Source of the DNA: Vulcanisaeta sp. AZ3
Lineage (GTDB): Archaea > Thermoproteota > Thermoprotei > Thermoproteales > Thermocladiaceae
NCBI GenBank assembly: GCA_000960865.2
Contig: JZWU02000019.1
Span: forward strand, 1-30,843
Reading direction: 5' to 3'
Length of the DNA: 30,843 nt
This document shows positions 3,478 to 30,400 of this stretch, piece by piece. The position numbers and the translations under genes were made by a program. Under the pieces are notes generated by a model. That model saw only the letters and a program-made list of their open reading frames with translations, was not told where the DNA came from and ran no database searches. Within the stretch, counting starts at the first letter, position 1. Each line of letters begins with the position of its first letter.

Positions 3478-4035
3478 TTAGATAGTAGCACCCTGGCCTT
3501 CCTGCTGCGTTGACTGCGCAGCTGGCTGGGCGAGTAATCTCTTGAGTATTGGGCTTGTTACTGCGTAGGTGATCTTATCCTCAAGATCCCTAGGCACTAA
3601 ATAGCCTGGTGATCTAACAATTCTATCGCCAACCATCACATGTCCATGAGTCACAAGCTGCCTTGCTTCATACACAGTCTTCGCAAGACCCCTTCTATAA
3701 ACAATAGTTTGCAGTCTTCTGTCTAACACGGCCCTAACATCAAGTGATAGCACAGCATCTAGAGGTATATCCTGCTCGGGTATGAAACCCGCCTTGAATA
3801 AGCTCTTCTTGAAAGCATTCTCTAAGGCGGCTCTCTCCTCGGCTGGCATCGAAAGTAGGGCCCTAGCTCTATGCTTTATCTCCCTAAGTATGGTTTTTGC
3901 GATCCAAAGCTCTCTTTTATTCCTCAATCCATACTCACCAATTGTCCTAAGCTCCTCATCTAACAACTCTCTATTCCAGAGTCTTCTCGGTTTACCGCCT
4001 ATGTATTTCTTCCTCGACTTCTTCGGGTCGCCCAT
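3478..4035 (-). CDS. rps4: 30S ribosomal protein S4
   Basis: MGDPKK..YGLRNKRELW, LDRRLQTIVYRRGLAKTVYEARQLVTHGH; ATG at 4035 (the ORF-track start at 4110 is an over-extension). Confidence 0.97.
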   Translation of the reverse strand: MGDPKKSRKKYIGGKPRRLWNRELLDEELRTIGEYGLRNKRELWIAKTILREIKHRARALLSMPAEERAALENAFKKSLFKAGFIPEQDIPLDAVLSLDVRAVLDRRLQTIVYRRGLAKTVYEARQLVTHGHVMVGDRIVRSPGYLVPRDLEDKITYAVTSPILKRLLAQPAAQSTQQEGQGATI

Positions 4036-22618: not shown

Positions 22619-23416
22619 ATGACAAGCAATAATGAGGAGCTTAAGGGAAAGCTTCTGGAGTTATTGAAGGTTGATGAGGAGTTTAGATTAGCAGTCATGG
22701 GACTACTAGGCATCGCTAACCTAAGCTCATCTATTGATAAACTAACTAGGTCTATTAATGAACTAACAGAAATAGTGAAGAAGCACGAAGAAAGACTGGC
22801 AAAAATAGAAGATAGATTGATTAAATTAGAGGGAAGAGTAATTAAGTTAGAAGAGGGAGTAGCTAAGTTAGAAAAAAGAATAACCAGGATAGAGGAGAGA
22901 TTAGCTAAGTTAGAGGAGAGAGTGATCAAGTTAGAAGAGAGAGTAGCTAGGCTGGAGGAGAGGATGGTTAAGTTAGAGGAGAGGATGGCTAAACTTGAGA
23001 AGGGAATGGCGTACTTAATAAGGAGGGTTAATAGGATTGAGAGGACTCTCGAGAGGTACAGTGTTAGTTTGGAGGATGAGGCTAATATTGTTGTTCAACA
23101 TTACCTTAGGCAGAGGGGTGTGGATATTAAGACTAGGGTTACTTACTTTGATGGTAAGTATGAATTTGATATTTATGGGACTGATGGTAAAATAACCATA
23201 GTTGGGGAGGCTAAGGTTAGGGCTAGTAGGAATACTATTACTAGGCTTGTAAATAAGGTTAAGAAGGTGATGGATAGGTGGCCTGACAAATTTAAGGGCA
23301 GGGTTATCACTGTGCTTTACTGCATGAGAGCCTTACCAGGCGTCGTTGAGGATGCTACGGCCAATGGCATTTGGTTAATTGAGGATATGGAGGAGAGGAC
23401 TGGGCTAAACCTCTAA
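22619..23416 (+). CDS. Coiled-coil heptad-repeat protein with C-terminal PD-(D/E)XK nuclease domain (paREP-like)
   Basis: DEEFRLAVMGLLG N-terminal motif, KLEER(V/M)x heptads, EFDIYG...VGEAK. Confidence 0.8.
   Translation: MTSNNEELKGKLLELLKVDEEFRLAVMGLLGIANLSSSIDKLTRSINELTEIVKKHEERLAKIEDRLIKLEGRVIKLEEGVAKLEKRITRIEERLAKLEERVIKLEERVARLEERMVKLEERMAKLEKGMAYLIRRVNRIERTLERYSVSLEDEANIVVQHYLRQRGVDIKTRVTYFDGKYEFDIYGTDGKITIVGEAKVRASRNTITRLVNKVKKVMDRWPDKFKGRVITVLYCMRALPGVVEDATANGIWLIEDMEERTGLNL
22781..23011 (+). repeat. About 11 degenerate 21-bp tandem repeats encoding KLEERVA-type heptads
   Basis: KHEERLA KIEDRLI KLEGRVI KLEEGVA KLEKRIT RIEERLA KLEERVI KLEERVA RLEERMV KLEERMA KLEKGMA. Confidence 0.85.
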
Positions 23417-23746: not shown

Positions 23747-24166
23747 TCAGTCCAGGAATTCTGTCAAGGACTTACTAACGTACTTATTAATTAACTGTTC
23801 AATGGTGTAAGCCTTAGAAAGATCGCCAGGTCTTACTGTGATATCACCACCACTCGTTATCGGTAAAAATCTCCACTCATCACCCCTATATTTAATGGCC
23901 ACATAAGCATCACCACCAGCCCTCTTGGCAAACTCGAGGAGCTTTTCCACCTTCTTTGCCTCAATCCTTATGGGTTTCCCCTTAGACCTATACTTGGCTT
24001 CTATTACGAGGGTGAATCCAGGACCTATGGCAACAATGTCTGGTACAAACCTCTTCCTAACACCACCACCTGATGAGCAACCACGAAGTACGGCGAGACC
24101 CATATCCCACAATATATTGGCCAGGGACCTCTCGTGAGATGATCCCTTCCTCTTTGGATGGCTCAT
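23747..24166 (-). CDS. hjc: Holliday junction resolvase
   Basis: KRKGSSHERSL, AVLRG..SGG, PDIVA, IEAK, WRFL; PIP-like tail KSLTEFL; ATG 24166 (TTG 24175 possible). Confidence 0.92.
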   Translation of the reverse strand: MSHPKRKGSSHERSLANILWDMGLAVLRGCSSGGGVRKRFVPDIVAIGPGFTLVIEAKYRSKGKPIRIEAKKVEKLLEFAKRAGGDAYVAIKYRGDEWRFLPITSGGDITVRPGDLSKAYTIEQLINKYVSKSLTEFLD

Positions 24167-24167
24167 G

Positions 24168-24860
24168 CTAATCAACTCTCAACTCCCTAATAATATTTGT
24201 GTCTGGGCATAGTAATACACATGCTAGGCTTGATTGTGAATCACAAAAGCCGCAGTTCGCGCTTATGGAGATGCTAGAGCTATTCTTAACCAATGCGTTG
24301 TAGGTTTCTGCTAGTCCAATGTCATATGTAAATACAAGGCTTGAGTGCGTAATTAAGTCCATATCGCCCAGGGAACCCGGCCTAACCAATAGGTATAAGT
24401 CACCCCCTGAATCCACATAATCCAAGAGCCAATTAACCACAGGCCTAGGCAAACCTCTAGGCAAAACCTCAGCATTACTATCTATTATTGGATCAATAAA
24501 TAACTCATTGGGTAAGTTTAGCAGATGAGGCCTTATATCAATAAGCCTCGTGAGGGCATCTAAAGTAAGACCTATTATGTAATTCCCAAGGTTAATTACA
24601 TACATAATCCACGCATCCCCAACCTCCGAATTCATAATAATTATTGACTTATCAAAATAATTCAACGATTTAGGTATGCCATTACCCAACCCACCACGAA
24701 ACCTATACACACCTATAACCTCCTTACCCAAGGATCTAATCCCCCTAATAAATCTCTGATCAATCTCACCATTAACCTCCATACCCAGCTTATTAGTGAA
24801 GGTAAGCCTCGGTATATGATTAATCCCCAACCCAATTATTGGAACCGCCTCAGGAAGCAT
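24168..24860 (-). CDS. Hypothetical protein with C-terminal ferredoxin-like Cys motif
   Basis: Start overlaps the tbp stop (TAATG); CGFC-x7-C-x3-CP near the C-terminus. Confidence 0.65.
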   Translation of the reverse strand: MLPEAVPIIGLGINHIPRLTFTNKLGMEVNGEIDQRFIRGIRSLGKEVIGVYRFRGGLGNGIPKSLNYFDKSIIIMNSEVGDAWIMYVINLGNYIIGLTLDALTRLIDIRPHLLNLPNELFIDPIIDSNAEVLPRGLPRPVVNWLLDYVDSGGDLYLLVRPGSLGDMDLITHSSLVFTYDIGLAETYNALVKNSSSISISANCGFCDSQSSLACVLLCPDTNIIRELRVD

Positions 24861-25438
24861 TAAAACTCCTCCTCCCCCTTCTTCACCTCCTCATACAACG
24901 CACCAATATCCTTCAATACATTATGAATCTTAAACACAGCATCCCTAACCTGCTCCTCCCTCTTCGCCCCCGTACACACAATCTTACCACTACTAAAGAT
25001 TAAGAGAACAACCTTAGGATCATCCATCCTATAAATAAGGCCAGGAAACTGCTCAGGTTCATACATAGAGTTCTCCAGAAGTAAGGCTGACTTCTCAATA
25101 TCCACCTCAGCATGTAAGTTCCCTGAAGCCACAATATTCTGAACCTGAATCTCAGGAACAAGCGGGACATCAGCCTCATGCTCATTAAGAAGCCTAACCA
25201 ACTCCTTAACAGCCCTCTTAAGCTCATTCTCACTCTTAGCCCCCGTACAAACCATCTTACCAGTCCTAAAAATAAGAGCCGAAATCTTAGGCCTCTGAAG
25301 CCTAAGTATGAGGCCAGGAAACTGCTCAGGATTATACTCAGCAGCCGGGAGCCTCTCGGCAAGTTTATCCAAGTCCAAATCAACGCCTAGGTTTACAGTA
25401 GCCACAATATTCTCAATCCTATAGGTAGGGCTTGACAT
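24860..25438 (-). CDS. tbp: TATA-box-binding protein
   Basis: Two repeats: NIVA...YNPEQFPGLI..LIFRTGKMVCTGAK and YEPEQFPGLIYR..LIFSSGKIVCTGAK. Confidence 0.99.
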   Translation of the reverse strand: MSSPTYRIENIVATVNLGVDLDLDKLAERLPAAEYNPEQFPGLILRLQRPKISALIFRTGKMVCTGAKSENELKRAVKELVRLLNEHEADVPLVPEIQVQNIVASGNLHAEVDIEKSALLLENSMYEPEQFPGLIYRMDDPKVVLLIFSSGKIVCTGAKREEQVRDAVFKIHNVLKDIGALYEEVKKGEEEF

Positions 25439-25495
25439 TGTTATGATTTATAAACCAAGTTTAAAAAGCCTTTCCAACAATTCACGATGTATTAC

Positions 25496-25753
25496 AACAT
25501 GCGAAAACCTCGCCATTTATGACGGGATTACGGTTTTAATTCCTTAAATAATAAAGAGTTTATAATTCTCGGCGAGTCGGGTTTGAGAATACGGACCCTC
25601 TAAAGAGGCCTTAAGGCCCCCTCACCCCTTAGCATATGGGAGGGTTCTCTGTTCCTCTCGACAACCCTACATGCAAGATGTAAACCCAAACCAATGAGGA
25701 ACCCCCCTCAGCCCATTTAGAGTGAGGAACCCTCGCACCTCAAGGCGGGTCAG
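25496..25753 (+). mobile_element. Degenerate non-autonomous IS200/IS605-family miniature element (tnpB internal-deletion derivative)
   Basis: GC-rich non-coding island with related imperfect hairpins at both ends (AAACCTCGCCATTTATGACGGG 25505-25526; GAACCCTCGCACCTCAAGGCGGG 25727-25749), TTAC before the left end, TCAG (25750-25753) at the right end, no terminal inverted repeats; boundaries approximate. Confidence 0.72.
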
Positions 25754-25809
25754 GATAACACCAAGAGAATAACTTATTAAAGGCATACACTGAAAAATAA
25801 TGACCAAAA

Positions 25810-26160
25810 ATGGGAGGAAAGAAGAGACCAACAGCATCCCAAATAGCTAAGAAGCAAGAAAGACAACAAACAGCGCAAGCCAAACCAGCAGCCAAGGGGA
25901 AGAAGACAACCACTGAAGAGAGACAGACAACCAAGGCATCCCTAGTAGACCCAAAACTACTAAATGATGTTGAGAATGAGGTAATTAAGTGGGAGTACGT
26001 AACACCATACCTAGTAGCAAGTAAGTTCAACACAAAGCTGAGTGTTGCATACCAAGTACTAAGAACCCTAGTAAGCAAGGGGACCCTAATCCTATACTCA
26101 AAAGGACACAGAACCGAAATATACACCACACCAGACAGACTTAAGAAAATAGCCGCATAA
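25810..26160 (+). CDS. rps25e: 30S ribosomal protein S25e
   Basis: MGGKKRPT basic N-terminus, YVTPYLVASKFNTKLSVAYQVLRTL winged helix, HRTEIY. Confidence 0.92.
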   Translation: MGGKKRPTASQIAKKQERQQTAQAKPAAKGKKTTTEERQTTKASLVDPKLLNDVENEVIKWEYVTPYLVASKFNTKLSVAYQVLRTLVSKGTLILYSKGHRTEIYTTPDRLKKIAA

Positions 26161-26200
26161 ACAATAAGCACCTTATTAATCAACTTAATTAAACAAATAA

Positions 26201-27322
26201 TTGATGAAGAACAAAGGTTCACTATCAACAATAATAGCAGGAATACTAGTCCTACTAACCCTAACCACAGGAATAATCATTGGAATAACAACACTATCAA
26301 CAATAACAACACTAACAAACCTAGCCTCAAACCACGTAAAAACAGTCGGAGAAGAATCAGCACTATACAGCGGACTAATAATACAAGGAAACAAACTAAC
26401 AAGCACCAAAGGCCCAATAACAATAATAAGCGCCATAAACAAAGAAGGAACACTCACAATAATCAACGAAACAACACAAACCTACACAACAAACACCACA
26501 ACACCACAACTCCTACTAACAAACGTAGGCCCAATCCTAATAGACCCAACAAACACGCTAAACCAAACCCAAACAAACAACCCAATAAACAACTACCTCT
26601 GGAACTGGGTAACCGCAGTAATAACAACAAACAACGGACAAAACCAATACACAGGCATAATAATAACCCTAGCAAACCAATACTACCTACTCCACATAAA
26701 CCCAAACTACGCCATAGGACCACTAACAGTAACGAATACATACATAACCAAGGACTACGGAGCAGGACTATGGGGATGCCAAGCAACCTACGGAGGACTA
26801 GGAGTCGGCGGCGCCTGGACAACATGCCCAGCACCAAACTACGCAAACACAGCCGTATACAAAGGACCATGGCCACAAATAACAATAACACCCATAAACA
26901 ACACAACCATAAAACTAACAATAACACTACTAAAAGGAACAAGCTTCATAAGAACACCAAAAAACTTCACCCTATACATACTAAACCAAAACAAACCACA
27001 ATGGATAAACCCAACATGCCAAGGACCCCATTTAATCACAAAATGCACCTTCGACATGACCTGGATACAATACCCATACCAAAAAGGCACGGCATGCTAC
27101 AATGGAGGCTGGATCTGGTGCACCCTACCCGAAAACATAACCTATAACATAACCATAAACATGAAAACACAAACACCCCAAAACTACTACCTAATAATGA
27201 TAATACACTACCCACCAGGATTCCCAAACCAATGGTTCACCTGGAACATAACAAACACAAAACCAAACACCCCAATCTGGCTAGACACACCAACACCAAA
27301 CGCAACAATCCTAACTCCATAA
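26201..27322 (+). CDS. Secreted/surface protein with a class III (pilin-like) signal peptide candidate
   Basis: MKNKG followed by a hydrophobic stretch SLSTIIAGILVLL; Thr/Asn-rich with many N-x-T sequons; ATG 26204 or TTG 26201. Confidence 0.7.
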   Translation: MMKNKGSLSTIIAGILVLLTLTTGIIIGITTLSTITTLTNLASNHVKTVGEESALYSGLIIQGNKLTSTKGPITIISAINKEGTLTIINETTQTYTTNTTTPQLLLTNVGPILIDPTNTLNQTQTNNPINNYLWNWVTAVITTNNGQNQYTGIIITLANQYYLLHINPNYAIGPLTVTNTYITKDYGAGLWGCQATYGGLGVGGAWTTCPAPNYANTAVYKGPWPQITITPINNTTIKLTITLLKGTSFIRTPKNFTLYILNQNKPQWINPTCQGPHLITKCTFDMTWIQYPYQKGTACYNGGWIWCTLPENITYNITINMKTQTPQNYYLIMIIHYPPGFPNQWFTWNITNTKPNTPIWLDTPTPNATILTP

Positions 27323-27449
27323 ACACTACATACGACTATATATAAAAATCAAATTCCAAATAAATTATTTATAAGTTCCAGAAAATACGAAAAATTAGAA
27401 CGAAATTCTAAACAAGATCCTTATAAAACCCTAAGCCCACGAATCCCCG

Positions 27450-30400
27450 ATGAATAAACCCAAAACCCATACCGGGATAACTACAAAACTACTCCCACTA
27501 CTACTAATAATAAGTATAATAGGTATAGTAGGAGCACTAGGGCACCCAGCCCTAGCACAAACAACCGGACCATACGGACCAACAAAAGTACCAATACCAC
27601 CAGTAACATACACCTACACCCTATACTGGAACCTAACAGACGCAAGACTAACAATGACAGCAAGTTTACCATCAGGAACAGCAGGTGACGTATATAAATA
27701 TTTAATAAATAATATGGTTCCTTGGTACTTCACAGCAAGCGAAAGCTTCACAATATACGTAATTAACGCCACAGATGTACACTACATAACAAGCAGTGGA
27801 ACCCAACTCGGCAGCCCCATATCCATGACAGCCACAGCAACAACAAACTCCACAGGCGGCATAACCTGGACCCTAAGCACAACACTACCAGGCACAGTAT
27901 CTCCCAACAATGTTTACGCTAGTTGGACAGTAGCCATAGTACTTAATAACTATGGAGGAGCAAACTGGTTAGTATTCAACGTAACAACCACAAACATGAG
28001 CTTAAAAGATCTAATGGGCAACCTAACCACAGTAAGCAATAGCAGTTACTTACTAACACCAAAAGGGAAGTATTACCTCTTCATACCCGTCCATGGCGCA
28101 GAGACATCAAAAAAAGGACTTATACGTAGTCCTACCATACCTATACTTCTTCTTCTTATACGTAGGCACAGCAACAACAAACACAACAACACCTGCACAA
28201 TTACCACCAACACCACAACTTGAGGCCTCAGTAACACTAGGCACTGGAGTTACTGTATTCGGCCCAACAACCTACAACTCCACAGTAACAAGCGCCTCAG
28301 AGAGCATTTACAGTAAGACCTACACAGGCTTCGGCCCCATTTACTACGTAACAAATGAATTCACAGGATTAAGCAATGGCCAACCAACAGTGACTGCCCA
28401 ACCAATAACAATAACAGTAAGCCTCGTCTACCCAAGCGGACAATCAGTAACACTCTATAACTACACAACAGCCACCGAAAACGTAACAACAACACCAGAA
28501 TCACTCAATGTAGCCCAAGCCTACGACTTCTACTCCAGCACGCAATATTATTTAACGGCAATTGACAATATTACAGGAACCGCTCCATCCCTAGTTGTTG
28601 GTGTTCCAATTGTTCAATTCTACATTGGTAGTGTTTATGATTTAAAGGGTAACTTAATAATACTTAGCCCAACCTCCATACCCAACGCAATACTTGCTGG
28701 TAAGCTATATGTAAAGTGGTTATTAGCCACAACACCAACAGCAACAGTAGTCAGTGAGAATTACCTACGCTACTACGAAACAACACCAGCCCCAGTACCA
28801 GTCGGCCAATTCACAGGCACAGGCCCCAAAGCACCTAAACTCACTCCACTCACAGTATCGCCTGAGTTATACATATTCTATGAGAATGAGCCGGTATTCA
28901 CAGCAACAATAAGCGTTGCTGAAGGCGTCACAAGCGTCACTATTAATGATATAACCGTGGCAGTAATGCCAGTATTCATAAACATAACCCAGTACCAACC
29001 AAGCGTTAAAGCATCAAGTCAACTACCACTAAGCCCCAACATAGCTACACAAATAACTGTGTACTACGCCTTCTCACCAACAACACCAATAATCTCAGAA
29101 ACACCACCAACAAGTGCTGTGCAGGGCACTCTCTACTATGAGTCACAAGTCTGGACTAATGAGACAATATCTGGCACAAGCTACCCAGCAACAATAGCTC
29201 AATTCCCACCATTCGTAGAGTCCTCAATATCGGGTGTATTAATAACGCCTGAGGTTAATTGGTTCCCAGCACCACCACTCACAGCCACAATAAGTGCAAC
29301 AAGTACGACTGCAACAGCAACACCACAGTACTCAGTCACATCAGAGCAGGTGTATTACTACAGTTTCTGGTTAATGTATAACGGCATGACTGTTGGTTAT
29401 GGAACATACGAATTAGGTTATAAACCTGGTGGCATACACAATGAGCAATATAAATTCAGCACACCTGAAATGCCCATATTCGATGTCTACCCAATTAGTG
29501 AGAGCAACACCACATTACTGACACTGTATGATAATGCTACTGAGTTAGCAGTAATGACACCAACTGGTGTCAAACCAAGCGGTACCATAGTATTTGCAAA
29601 CGTTACTGTGGAGAGAGCCTTCATAGCAGCAACATACACAGTCTATAACGTGCAATTCCTCAACCTATGCAATGAAACAATAACATCTGGTATAGCAACC
29701 GTTAGTGAATTAACACCAAGCGGTACCACGGTAACCCTATCACCAGTTGCACTAAGTTCCACAGCCTATGTAATGAAGATAACAGCACCCATAGCCCTAG
29801 AGATAACCTCAGTATCTGGCGTGCCGTACATAGAGACCACAACACCGGTCTTTAACTTCACATTGAATTACTACGGCTACATAATGCCGTCAGTCAGTTA
29901 CAGCACTAGGCAGCCCATGCATAATGTACCACTAAAGCCTGGCGTAATTAATGTGGTTTACTTCCCACTAATTGACATAAACATACAAGTACTAAGCAAT
30001 ACAACACCAAGCTATCCACTATTCGGCTTTGCAGTCAGTGTGTATAACTATAATGGAACCTTCGAGATGTGGCATGCCATAACAAACTCCAGCGGTTATG
30101 TATTTGTAACGAATGTACCACTAAATGCCAGTTACATAATGCCTAAGGGCAAGGCCTACGTAATGCTAAAAGTCAGGACAATAAGCCCAGCTACAGACAG
30201 CGCCTACTCCTACGCCTCAGTATCCAGCGAATATGGACAGACCTACCAAAACTATACAAAGGCTCTAGGCATACCCTCATCATACTACGCCTACACATTA
30301 GGTACTAGGGGTCCATTTGATGAGGACCTCGTGATTTACTACAAGCAATTCAGTGTACCCGTAACCACCACGTGTGGCCAGGTATTCCCCGTAACTGTGC

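Follow-up and report, generated by a model that had tools for sequence, protein, structure and literature searches.

The window, i.e. the whole stretch of 30,843 nt that was analysed (contig JZWU02000019.1 of Vulcanisaeta sp. AZ3), carries the genes tbp and rps25e in opposite orientation, and the spacer between them contains a gene-less derivative of the IS200/IS605 family (PATE). Table 1 gives an overview of the genes, the native promoters and the parts of the element. In the surroundings a coiled-coil repeat protein, an Hjc resolvase (PF01870) and Thr/Asn-rich surface-type ORFs are found (22619-23416 (+), 23750-24175 (-), 26201-28223 (+)). All features named in an earlier note on this DNA were recovered at their positions, and its basic claim, a TnpB-less mini-element of the IS605 family following TTAC, is supported by homology, by family copies and by empty sites in relatives. 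Stop codons interrupt five of the six frames of the element, and the open frame on the minus strand comprises 86 codons, which is too short for a transposase. An Rfam scan of 25000-26300 gave only four chance-level matches (E 5.9-8).

Table 1 Features of the tbp-rps25e region with their positions in the window
Feature	Position	Strand	Remark
tbp (TATA-binding protein), host gene left of the insertion	24860-25438	-	PF00352, E=4.9e-67
Native tbp BRE-TATA promoter, intact	25460-25475	-	Top matrix site, 11.6 bits; conserved in relatives
TTAC target tetranucleotide, host DNA left of the element	25492-25495	+	At the position of the relatives' empty site
Whole gene-less IS200/IS605-derived mini-element (PATE), 258 nt	25496-25753	+	Spacer length compared with relatives; 13 family copies in genome
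Left-end DNA guide position, AAAA instead of AAAG	25504-25507	+	Mismatched to TTAC
Left subterminal hairpin, weakened	25508-25526	+	Matches left ends of the relatives' tnpB elements
tnpB promoter relic (TTAAATA, TTTATAA), poor BRE	25536-25567	+	Position of the TATA of parents L139 and L141
Middle segment, 70 nt, including the 12-nt palindrome	25566-25635	+	Common to 9 of 13 copies in the own genome
Degraded omegaRNA-scaffold homologue (tnpB 3' end and right end)	25636-25753	+	E=3.6e-11; 43.2 bits on covariance model R3
Stem 1, 7 bp, can still pair	25638-25659	+	From fold; 5' strand of the pseudoknot (25649-25653) in its loop, one U-U mismatch
Central 7-bp helix region, broken	25661-25701	+	Conserved ACTG reads ACAA
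Right-end guide GAAC and weakened right hairpin	25727-25749	+	GAAC 25727-25730; hairpin 25731-25749
Terminal TCAG	25750-25753	+	Follows a 7-nt deletion of the conserved purine linker
Host flank, would-be guide segment, overlapping the rps25e BRE	25754-25773	+	Abuts the rps25e TATA
Native rps25e BRE-TATA promoter, intact	25766-25781	+	6.8 bits; TATA-to-ATG spacing as in relatives
rps25e (ribosomal protein eS25), host gene right of the insertion	25810-26160	+	PF03297, E=3.4e-21

Loci with rps25e were fetched from 30 relatives. The tbp gene adjoins in 23 of them, including all 12 loci of the same genus, and the element is absent from the tbp-rps25e spacer in each of these 12, so that the empty site proposed as a check in the earlier note does exist. 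The spacer measures 371 nt in the window compared to 123-125 nt in ten of the 12 relatives and 157 and 186 nt in the other two, while the distance from the junction to the tbp start codon is 57 nt compared to 57-67 nt. The relatives are diverged and the junction was set by length and position, not base by base; the corresponding tetranucleotide is ATAC in ten loci, TTAC in one (L033) and TTTC in one. We placed the end of the element at 25753, which assigns 25754-25775 to host DNA. A covariance model favours another position, 25761, as the 3' boundary, where the terminal motif would be decayed. From the junction to the ATG there are 56 nt for an end at 25753 and 48 nt for 25761, compared to 63-66 nt in the ten relatives with a compact spacer. 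The end at 25753 is preferred because the empty-site lengths fit it better, and the right end is damaged whichever boundary holds. An unrelated hairpin remnant is present in the same spacer at L039 (G007), and a PATE-like element lies upstream of rps25e at L058 (G023). These two cases suggest that the spacer is used repeatedly by inserts.

The marks of a PATE are found together at this locus: insertion without duplication 3' of a conserved target of 4-5 nt with an empty site in relatives, near-terminal palindromes akin to IS605-type ends in the absence of terminal inverted repeats, and several dispersed genomic copies (13 at E<1e-3). The copies were collected by an iterated profile search, for which seven of the 13 served as seeds, and none was found in the reversed-genome control. 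C42 and C46 represent one locus in two haplotype contigs, which leaves 12 loci. Many contigs of the assembly overlap by 115 nt or have duplicates of 93-98% identity (e.g. C42/C46), pointing to a strain mixture. The copies have a median pairwise identity of 55% over 78 pairs, and the element of the window (the query) reaches at most 64% identity to any other copy.

Several copies and related elements show features of their own. Despite identities of about 55-70%, C8 (L061), C26 (L064) and C46 (L062) keep all seven pairs of the central helix of the scaffold by compensatory changes. A short repeat at the start of C46 resembles a tRNA gene, as judged by eye. In three of the 13 copies, L066 (G000:C3:65678-65698), L067 (C20:13162-13182) and L070 (C11:42150-42170), a convergent host ORF enters the right end for about 20 nt and takes its last codons and its stop from it (ending LTPSLP or LTSSLP); this overlap could explain the good keeping of these right ends. 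A near-perfect, terminal-only PATE of another family, L075 (G000:C22: about 3803-3849), has a TGAC target, CAAG at the guide position, an intact hairpin and a TCAG end, and is apparently younger than the main family. Furthermore, L161 (G022:C22:224-396) and L173 (G020:C42:4399-4590) are better-preserved gene-less cassettes of a left end and an omegaRNA (76.8 and 73.5 bits), which sit in genomes with TNB-domain matches. These two are better candidates than the query for a working standalone guide or for a test in trans.

The best outside match to the element is the 3' end of a full tnpB gene (L002). Searches with such TnpB proteins led to tnpB-only elements of Sulfolobales, Thermoproteales and their kin, and all three parent-type proteins tested pass NCBIfam NF040570 (guided_TnpB). 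Both the left end of the element and its final ~118 nt have counterparts in tnpB-only elements of Thermoproteota. The earlier note had suggested a likeness of 25635-25750 to tnpB 3' ends. Indeed, a profile of 24 tnpB-linked 3' ends, chosen by eye for this end type (L081, L082 and L084 excluded as more decayed) and built without the query, matches 25636-25748 at E=3.6e-11, the best match in the genome. Upstream of this part no further homology to the parent 3' ends was found.

Most of the listed parent elements follow TTAC, and AAAG precedes the left hairpin in 14 of 15 parent left ends. Their right ends consist of a hairpin followed by a purine linker and TCAG, and the usual right-end pair is GAAC with TCAG; in IS608, GAAT pairs with TCAA. 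The tnpB-only (IS1341-type) elements L077, L078, L117, L136-L139, L142 and L143 share with the query the TTAC target, a left end of GAAAG plus hairpin, a TATA behind the left hairpin, the 3' core and the terminal TCAG. They differ from it by an ORF of ~390 aa, an intact linker and intact helices. Among the 15 parent left ends, L136 is the sole one with AAAA and follows TTAT, compared to TTAC with AAAG in the sister elements, a natural covariation of DNA guide and target. The middle segment of the query is not convincingly present in any tnpB-only locus. A search for full-length tnpB elements and mini-copies, as suggested earlier, thus yielded related tnpB-only elements and the 13 copies of the own genome but not the direct parent. 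Of 30 other genomes of the family, 14 contain ends of a similar type, often lacking a gene.

Some of the features that first drew attention to the region are less telling. Dinucleotide shuffling of the element yields a perfect 12-nt palindrome, like that at 25607-25618, in 65 of 1000 cases, and an exact 10-nt direct repeat, like that at 25695 and 25723, in 30 of 1000; the repeat corresponds to a GAACC motif that is doubled in parent ends of the long form (e.g. L079, L131, L143, L151). As single-stranded DNA neither terminal hairpin folds better than shuffles (z -0.55 to +0.47, four strands), and the fold of 25570-25775 gave z -0.64 against shuffles. Palindrome, repeat and hairpins are unremarkable when taken alone, and the reality of the element rests on comparison.

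In the parents joint covariation is seen for three parts of the scaffold, a pseudoknot (upstream CUGAC with terminal GUCAG), a central helix of 7 bp and the terminal hairpin: their score was reached in none of 500 shuffles and slid controls were far lower, for a set of 11 parent ends that were picked for in-register alignment and whose relatedness can inflate covariation. Stem 1 pairs in 91% of the cells of the parents but covaries no more than shuffles do (127 of 500 when taken together with the pseudoknot). An alternative helix given by RNAalifold for the 24 parent ends was set aside and the covarying central helix was preferred, as the variable pair of the former is broken or gapped in 6 of 24. 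In the available part of its description, the ISDra2 structure has a pseudoknot at the scaffold end, too (PMC10097598).

A covariance model recognises the scaffold of the query at 43.2 bits, below the 62-100 bits of 21 held-out matches; the models were derived from related subfamilies and not from the direct parent, and part of the low score may reflect divergence. The pairing of the scaffold, on which the earlier note had made its omegaRNA depend, is damaged in the central helix: three of its seven pairs are broken, compared to full pairing in 20 of 24 references. Three Watson-Crick pairs of the pseudoknot are kept; the fourth, which is intact in 22 of 23 distinct references, is U-U, and is followed by a wobble and then a pair. 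Of 42 columns conserved at ≥90%, as defined by the references themselves, the query misses nine and the references 0-5. It scored below the held-out end in all 24 leave-one-out profile runs. Among the 3' ends of its own genome it ranks first or third in preservation, and in folding the 124-nt scaffold surpasses 186 of 200 shuffles (z -1.5). By these comparisons the scaffold carries uncompensated lesions, and the reading as a functional omegaRNA is weak.

The left end and the internal promoter are altered as well. In the accessible portion of the IS608 work, AAAG recognises TTAC (PMC5027513). According to this rule, AAAA with TTAC in the query is a mismatch of guide and target that would oppose mobility. 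The left hairpin reaches -0.7 kcal/mol compared to -0.9 to -9.8 kcal/mol in 15 parents. Two TATA-like sites follow it (TTAAATA, 25544-25550; TTTATAA, 25559-25565). For scoring promoters, a BRE-TATA matrix was derived from 178 upstream regions of the own genome, and a rounded version of it was used for comparing element and host; a sigma-70 promoter scan was set aside as not applicable to archaea. On the rounded matrix the plus-strand sites of the element score 2.4 and 4.5 bits and a minus-strand site 4.8 bits, compared to 7.5 and 12.0 bits for the host promoters of rps25e and tbp, respectively; on the unrounded matrix the 75th-90th percentile of shuffled sequences is at 3.5-5.4 bits and parent promoters reach 2.2-11.4 bits. 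The internal promoter has lost its purine-rich BRE, and its scores are in the shuffle range. A promoter fused almost directly to the scaffold had been proposed: a TATA-like relic is indeed present at the position of the parent promoter, but ~70 nt of family-specific DNA separate it from the scaffold. A model of this middle segment was searched over 120 genomes and gave, in the 119 other genomes, only weak matches (E 7e-4 to 0.05) in 15, none of them tnpB-linked. Local alignment of the segment to tnpB 5' starts beats shuffles in 4 of 30 tests (0-3 of 200), and it possibly represents the decayed first codons of a tnpB. No consensus fold was obtained for it (0 pairs in RNAalifold).

At the right end, the hairpin (-2.5 to -3.2 kcal/mol, compared to -1.0 to -10.4 kcal/mol in 24 references) is weaker than 22 of the 24. 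Only one linker nucleotide lies between hairpin and cleavage site, compared to 6-8 in all 24 references, and the spacing associated with mobility is lost. The flank that would serve as guide ends next to the rps25e TATA (25774-25781). No target of this guide with a TTAC motif was found in the own genome beyond one 12/20 match, which leaves the empty site as its target. A scan of viruses (motif plus 12-nt seed) gave 29 matches, none past 14 nt and with 4-8 mismatches in 20, which were treated as chance. The single match of the 20-nt flank in a metagenome scan (L085) is unrelated to the locus. In the filled locus TCAG, not TTAC, precedes the DNA matching the guide. For S. islandicus, the part of the report at hand states that the element's end motif abolished cleavage (PMC11043419). 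With TCAG in place of TTAC, a motif-reading TnpB should thus not target the filled locus. Both host promoters retain their ancestral spacing despite the insert. These two observations speak against the effect on tbp and rps25e that the earlier note had considered.

Two studies provide three public DNA runs whose contigs show the left part of the element and the right junction at this site; one of the runs, X1, is possibly the source of the window itself. Being present in all three, the insert persists in the population, and no empty tbp-rps25e allele was seen in these runs. The 5' part of the element differs between X3 and the window at 11 of 120 positions, compared to 17 of 930 positions of tbp and rps25e (p=1e-4); the host spacer differs at 3 of 113, and the element is not clearly above it (p=0.05). 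In this comparison 40 of 43 letter differences were itemised. A sister allele, represented by X3 and a minor X1 contig, shows, in place of 25616-25729 or -25733, 112-120 letters without an alignment at 80%. Both alleles co-occur in X1 at depths of 10.1 and 5.8, and the linker deletion is common to both. One sister contig reads G at 25664, which restores one conserved base. At 25564 the sister allele carries a change that affects the second TATA as well as the one on the reverse strand. The replaced letters show that the scaffold region varies at this locus, be it by conversion or by fast decay. An inversion was discarded as origin of the variant, as there is no strand-change joint among those listed.

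No match to PF07282 (Cas12f1-like TNB), PF01385 (OrfB_IS605) or PF01797 (Y1_Tnp) was found in the assembly, which is 89.85% complete and could lack an intact tnpB or tnpA for this reason. In contrast, PF07282 matches occur in 11 of the 12 genomes of the same genus, and Y1 (PF01797) matches in three. With 36 putative TnpB queries only two short pseudogene fragments were detected in the assembly, both decayed (G000:C6:53191-53593 and C1:56598-56822); the one in C6 runs into a right end of the family type. None of the contig ends of the assembly carries a fresh IS605 end.

Elements of this kind have been described before, and the following comparisons refer to the portions of the publications that were available. 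The PATEs of Haloquadratum walsbyi are heterogeneous, and HqIRS71 has retained a piece of the region coding for the TnpB C-terminus, in which every frame is disrupted (PMC3119063). Like them, the query is a gene-less IS605 derivative with near-terminal palindromes, a 4-nt target and divergent copies, and is devoid of inverted repeats and target duplication; it differs by its host from the Thermoproteota, its TTAC/TCAG tnpB subfamily and its private 70-nt middle segment. Geobacillus stearothermophilus has PATE-like elements with omegaRNAs (PMC10055086), and omegaRNAs that stand alone and act in trans have been reported (PMC10691335). The query resembles these in having a left end, a right end and an omegaRNA part without a protein, with the guide coming from the right flank. 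However, those genomes hold an intact tnpB or iscB, and that of Geobacillus tnpA too, whereas none was found here and the scaffold is damaged. In Halobacterium salinarum, sotRNAs and the PATE-derived ncRNA VNG_R0052 are known; VNG_R0052 likewise stems from an archaeal element of fused left and right ends in a spacer, is homologous to tnpB 3' ends, is transcribed and affects growth when overexpressed (PMC4615843), while the query is known here from its sequence. Guide RNAs of Sulfolobus TnpB have been described as well (PMC11043419, 10.1101/2023.03.06.531077). PATEs encoding omegaRNAs are thus already published, and the query family adds a member to a known kind that is probably inert. In the literature searched, which did not extend to supplements that could list such elements, no paper on this particular family was found.

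With high probability the element is a PATE of old age that is decaying: a tnpB element with an internal deletion, which spread non-autonomously, was once protected by its omegaRNA and a TnpB in trans and is now immobile. The homology, the insertion and the lesions are observed, and from them we infer former mobility, a former guide function and present silence. A tnpB-only element of the IS605 family would have lost almost all of its coding region; judged by homology, there remained the left end and the promoter, a short stretch in the middle and the right end with the omegaRNA. This shortened unit may have spread to about a dozen intergenic sites with a Y1 transposase acting in trans, landing 3' of TTAC without target duplication, as the shared architecture and the known peel-and-paste mechanism suggest. 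As long as a cognate TnpB was present, it would have been directed to the empty site by the omegaRNA, which would have favoured retention of the insert, by analogy with published work. Later, as far as can be seen from the assembly, intact tnpA and tnpB would have disappeared from the lineage, and this copy has since lost the left-guide match, hairpin strength, the BRE, the central helix and the right-end linker. Because ends, promoter and scaffold are all affected, the copy is most likely immobile and without a functional guide, and the insert may be tolerated because it is located between two intact host promoters.

A working standalone omegaRNA, transcribed from the internal TATA and used in trans by a TnpB that the assembly lacks or that part of the population possesses, could cut empty alleles and thereby keep the insert. 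The architecture does match published PATE omegaRNAs as far as the accessible texts describe them (PMC10055086, PMC10691335), stem 1 is intact, five of six extended pseudoknot positions can pair, the three runs gave no empty allele, and the ISDra2 omegaRNA, in what could be consulted of that study, tolerates the loss of some parts (PMC10097598). We nevertheless consider this unlikely in view of the broken central helix, the deleted linker, the lost conserved bases, the weak promoter scores, a search that gave neither a TnpB nor a fresh IS605 end at contig ends, and the replacement of the scaffold region by unlike sequence in the sister allele. The orphan omegaRNA of the earlier note therefore stands as an omegaRNA-homologous 3' part; as a working RNA it is opposed by the uncompensated lesions, the promoter without purine-rich BRE and the lack of an intact TnpB or TnpA among the proteins found. 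Its own alternative, that the element may simply be decaying, is the best-supported reading. Similarly improbable is a co-option in cis, by which the element would serve rps25e as a second upstream promoter or as a 5' leader, or would drive tbp from a promoter on its reverse strand. In favour of this, it is oriented toward rps25e, both of its strands contain TATA-like sites (4.5 and 4.8 bits), a bacterial-type scan gave no terminator-like site on the plus strand, and three other copies are partly absorbed into host gene ends. However, the native promoters are intact and spaced as in the ancestor, the second and the reverse-strand TATA are both altered at 25564 in the sister allele, and all 12 relatives of the same genus manage without the element.

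That chance hairpins in spacer DNA or an assembly artefact mimic a transposon remnant has hardly any probability left: the individual hairpins, palindrome and repeat are compatible with it, but it is already refuted by the match to independent tnpB ends (E=3.6e-11), the 13 copies, the empty site in relatives and the occurrence in three runs of two studies. Finally, the family might consist of dedicated guide-RNA cassettes, once or partly still, with the 70-nt segment as their own 5' module and with scaffolds exchanged by gene conversion under selection from a TnpB in trans. This reading, to which we give a slight chance, is raised because sister copies keep the central helix by compensatory changes and because two unlike, equally long scaffold versions exist in one population. 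If true, it would mean that selection acts on protein-less guide cassettes and that their scaffolds are exchanged, here with a guide placed over the rps25e promoter.

Under the favoured reading as a decayed PATE, the element itself is of little importance. It adds an example from the Thermoproteota and illustrates stages of decay after the loss of TnpA and TnpB. As a by-product, the comparison provides a covariation-supported omegaRNA core (stem 1, pseudoknot, central helix and terminal hairpin) for a thermophilic TnpB subfamily.
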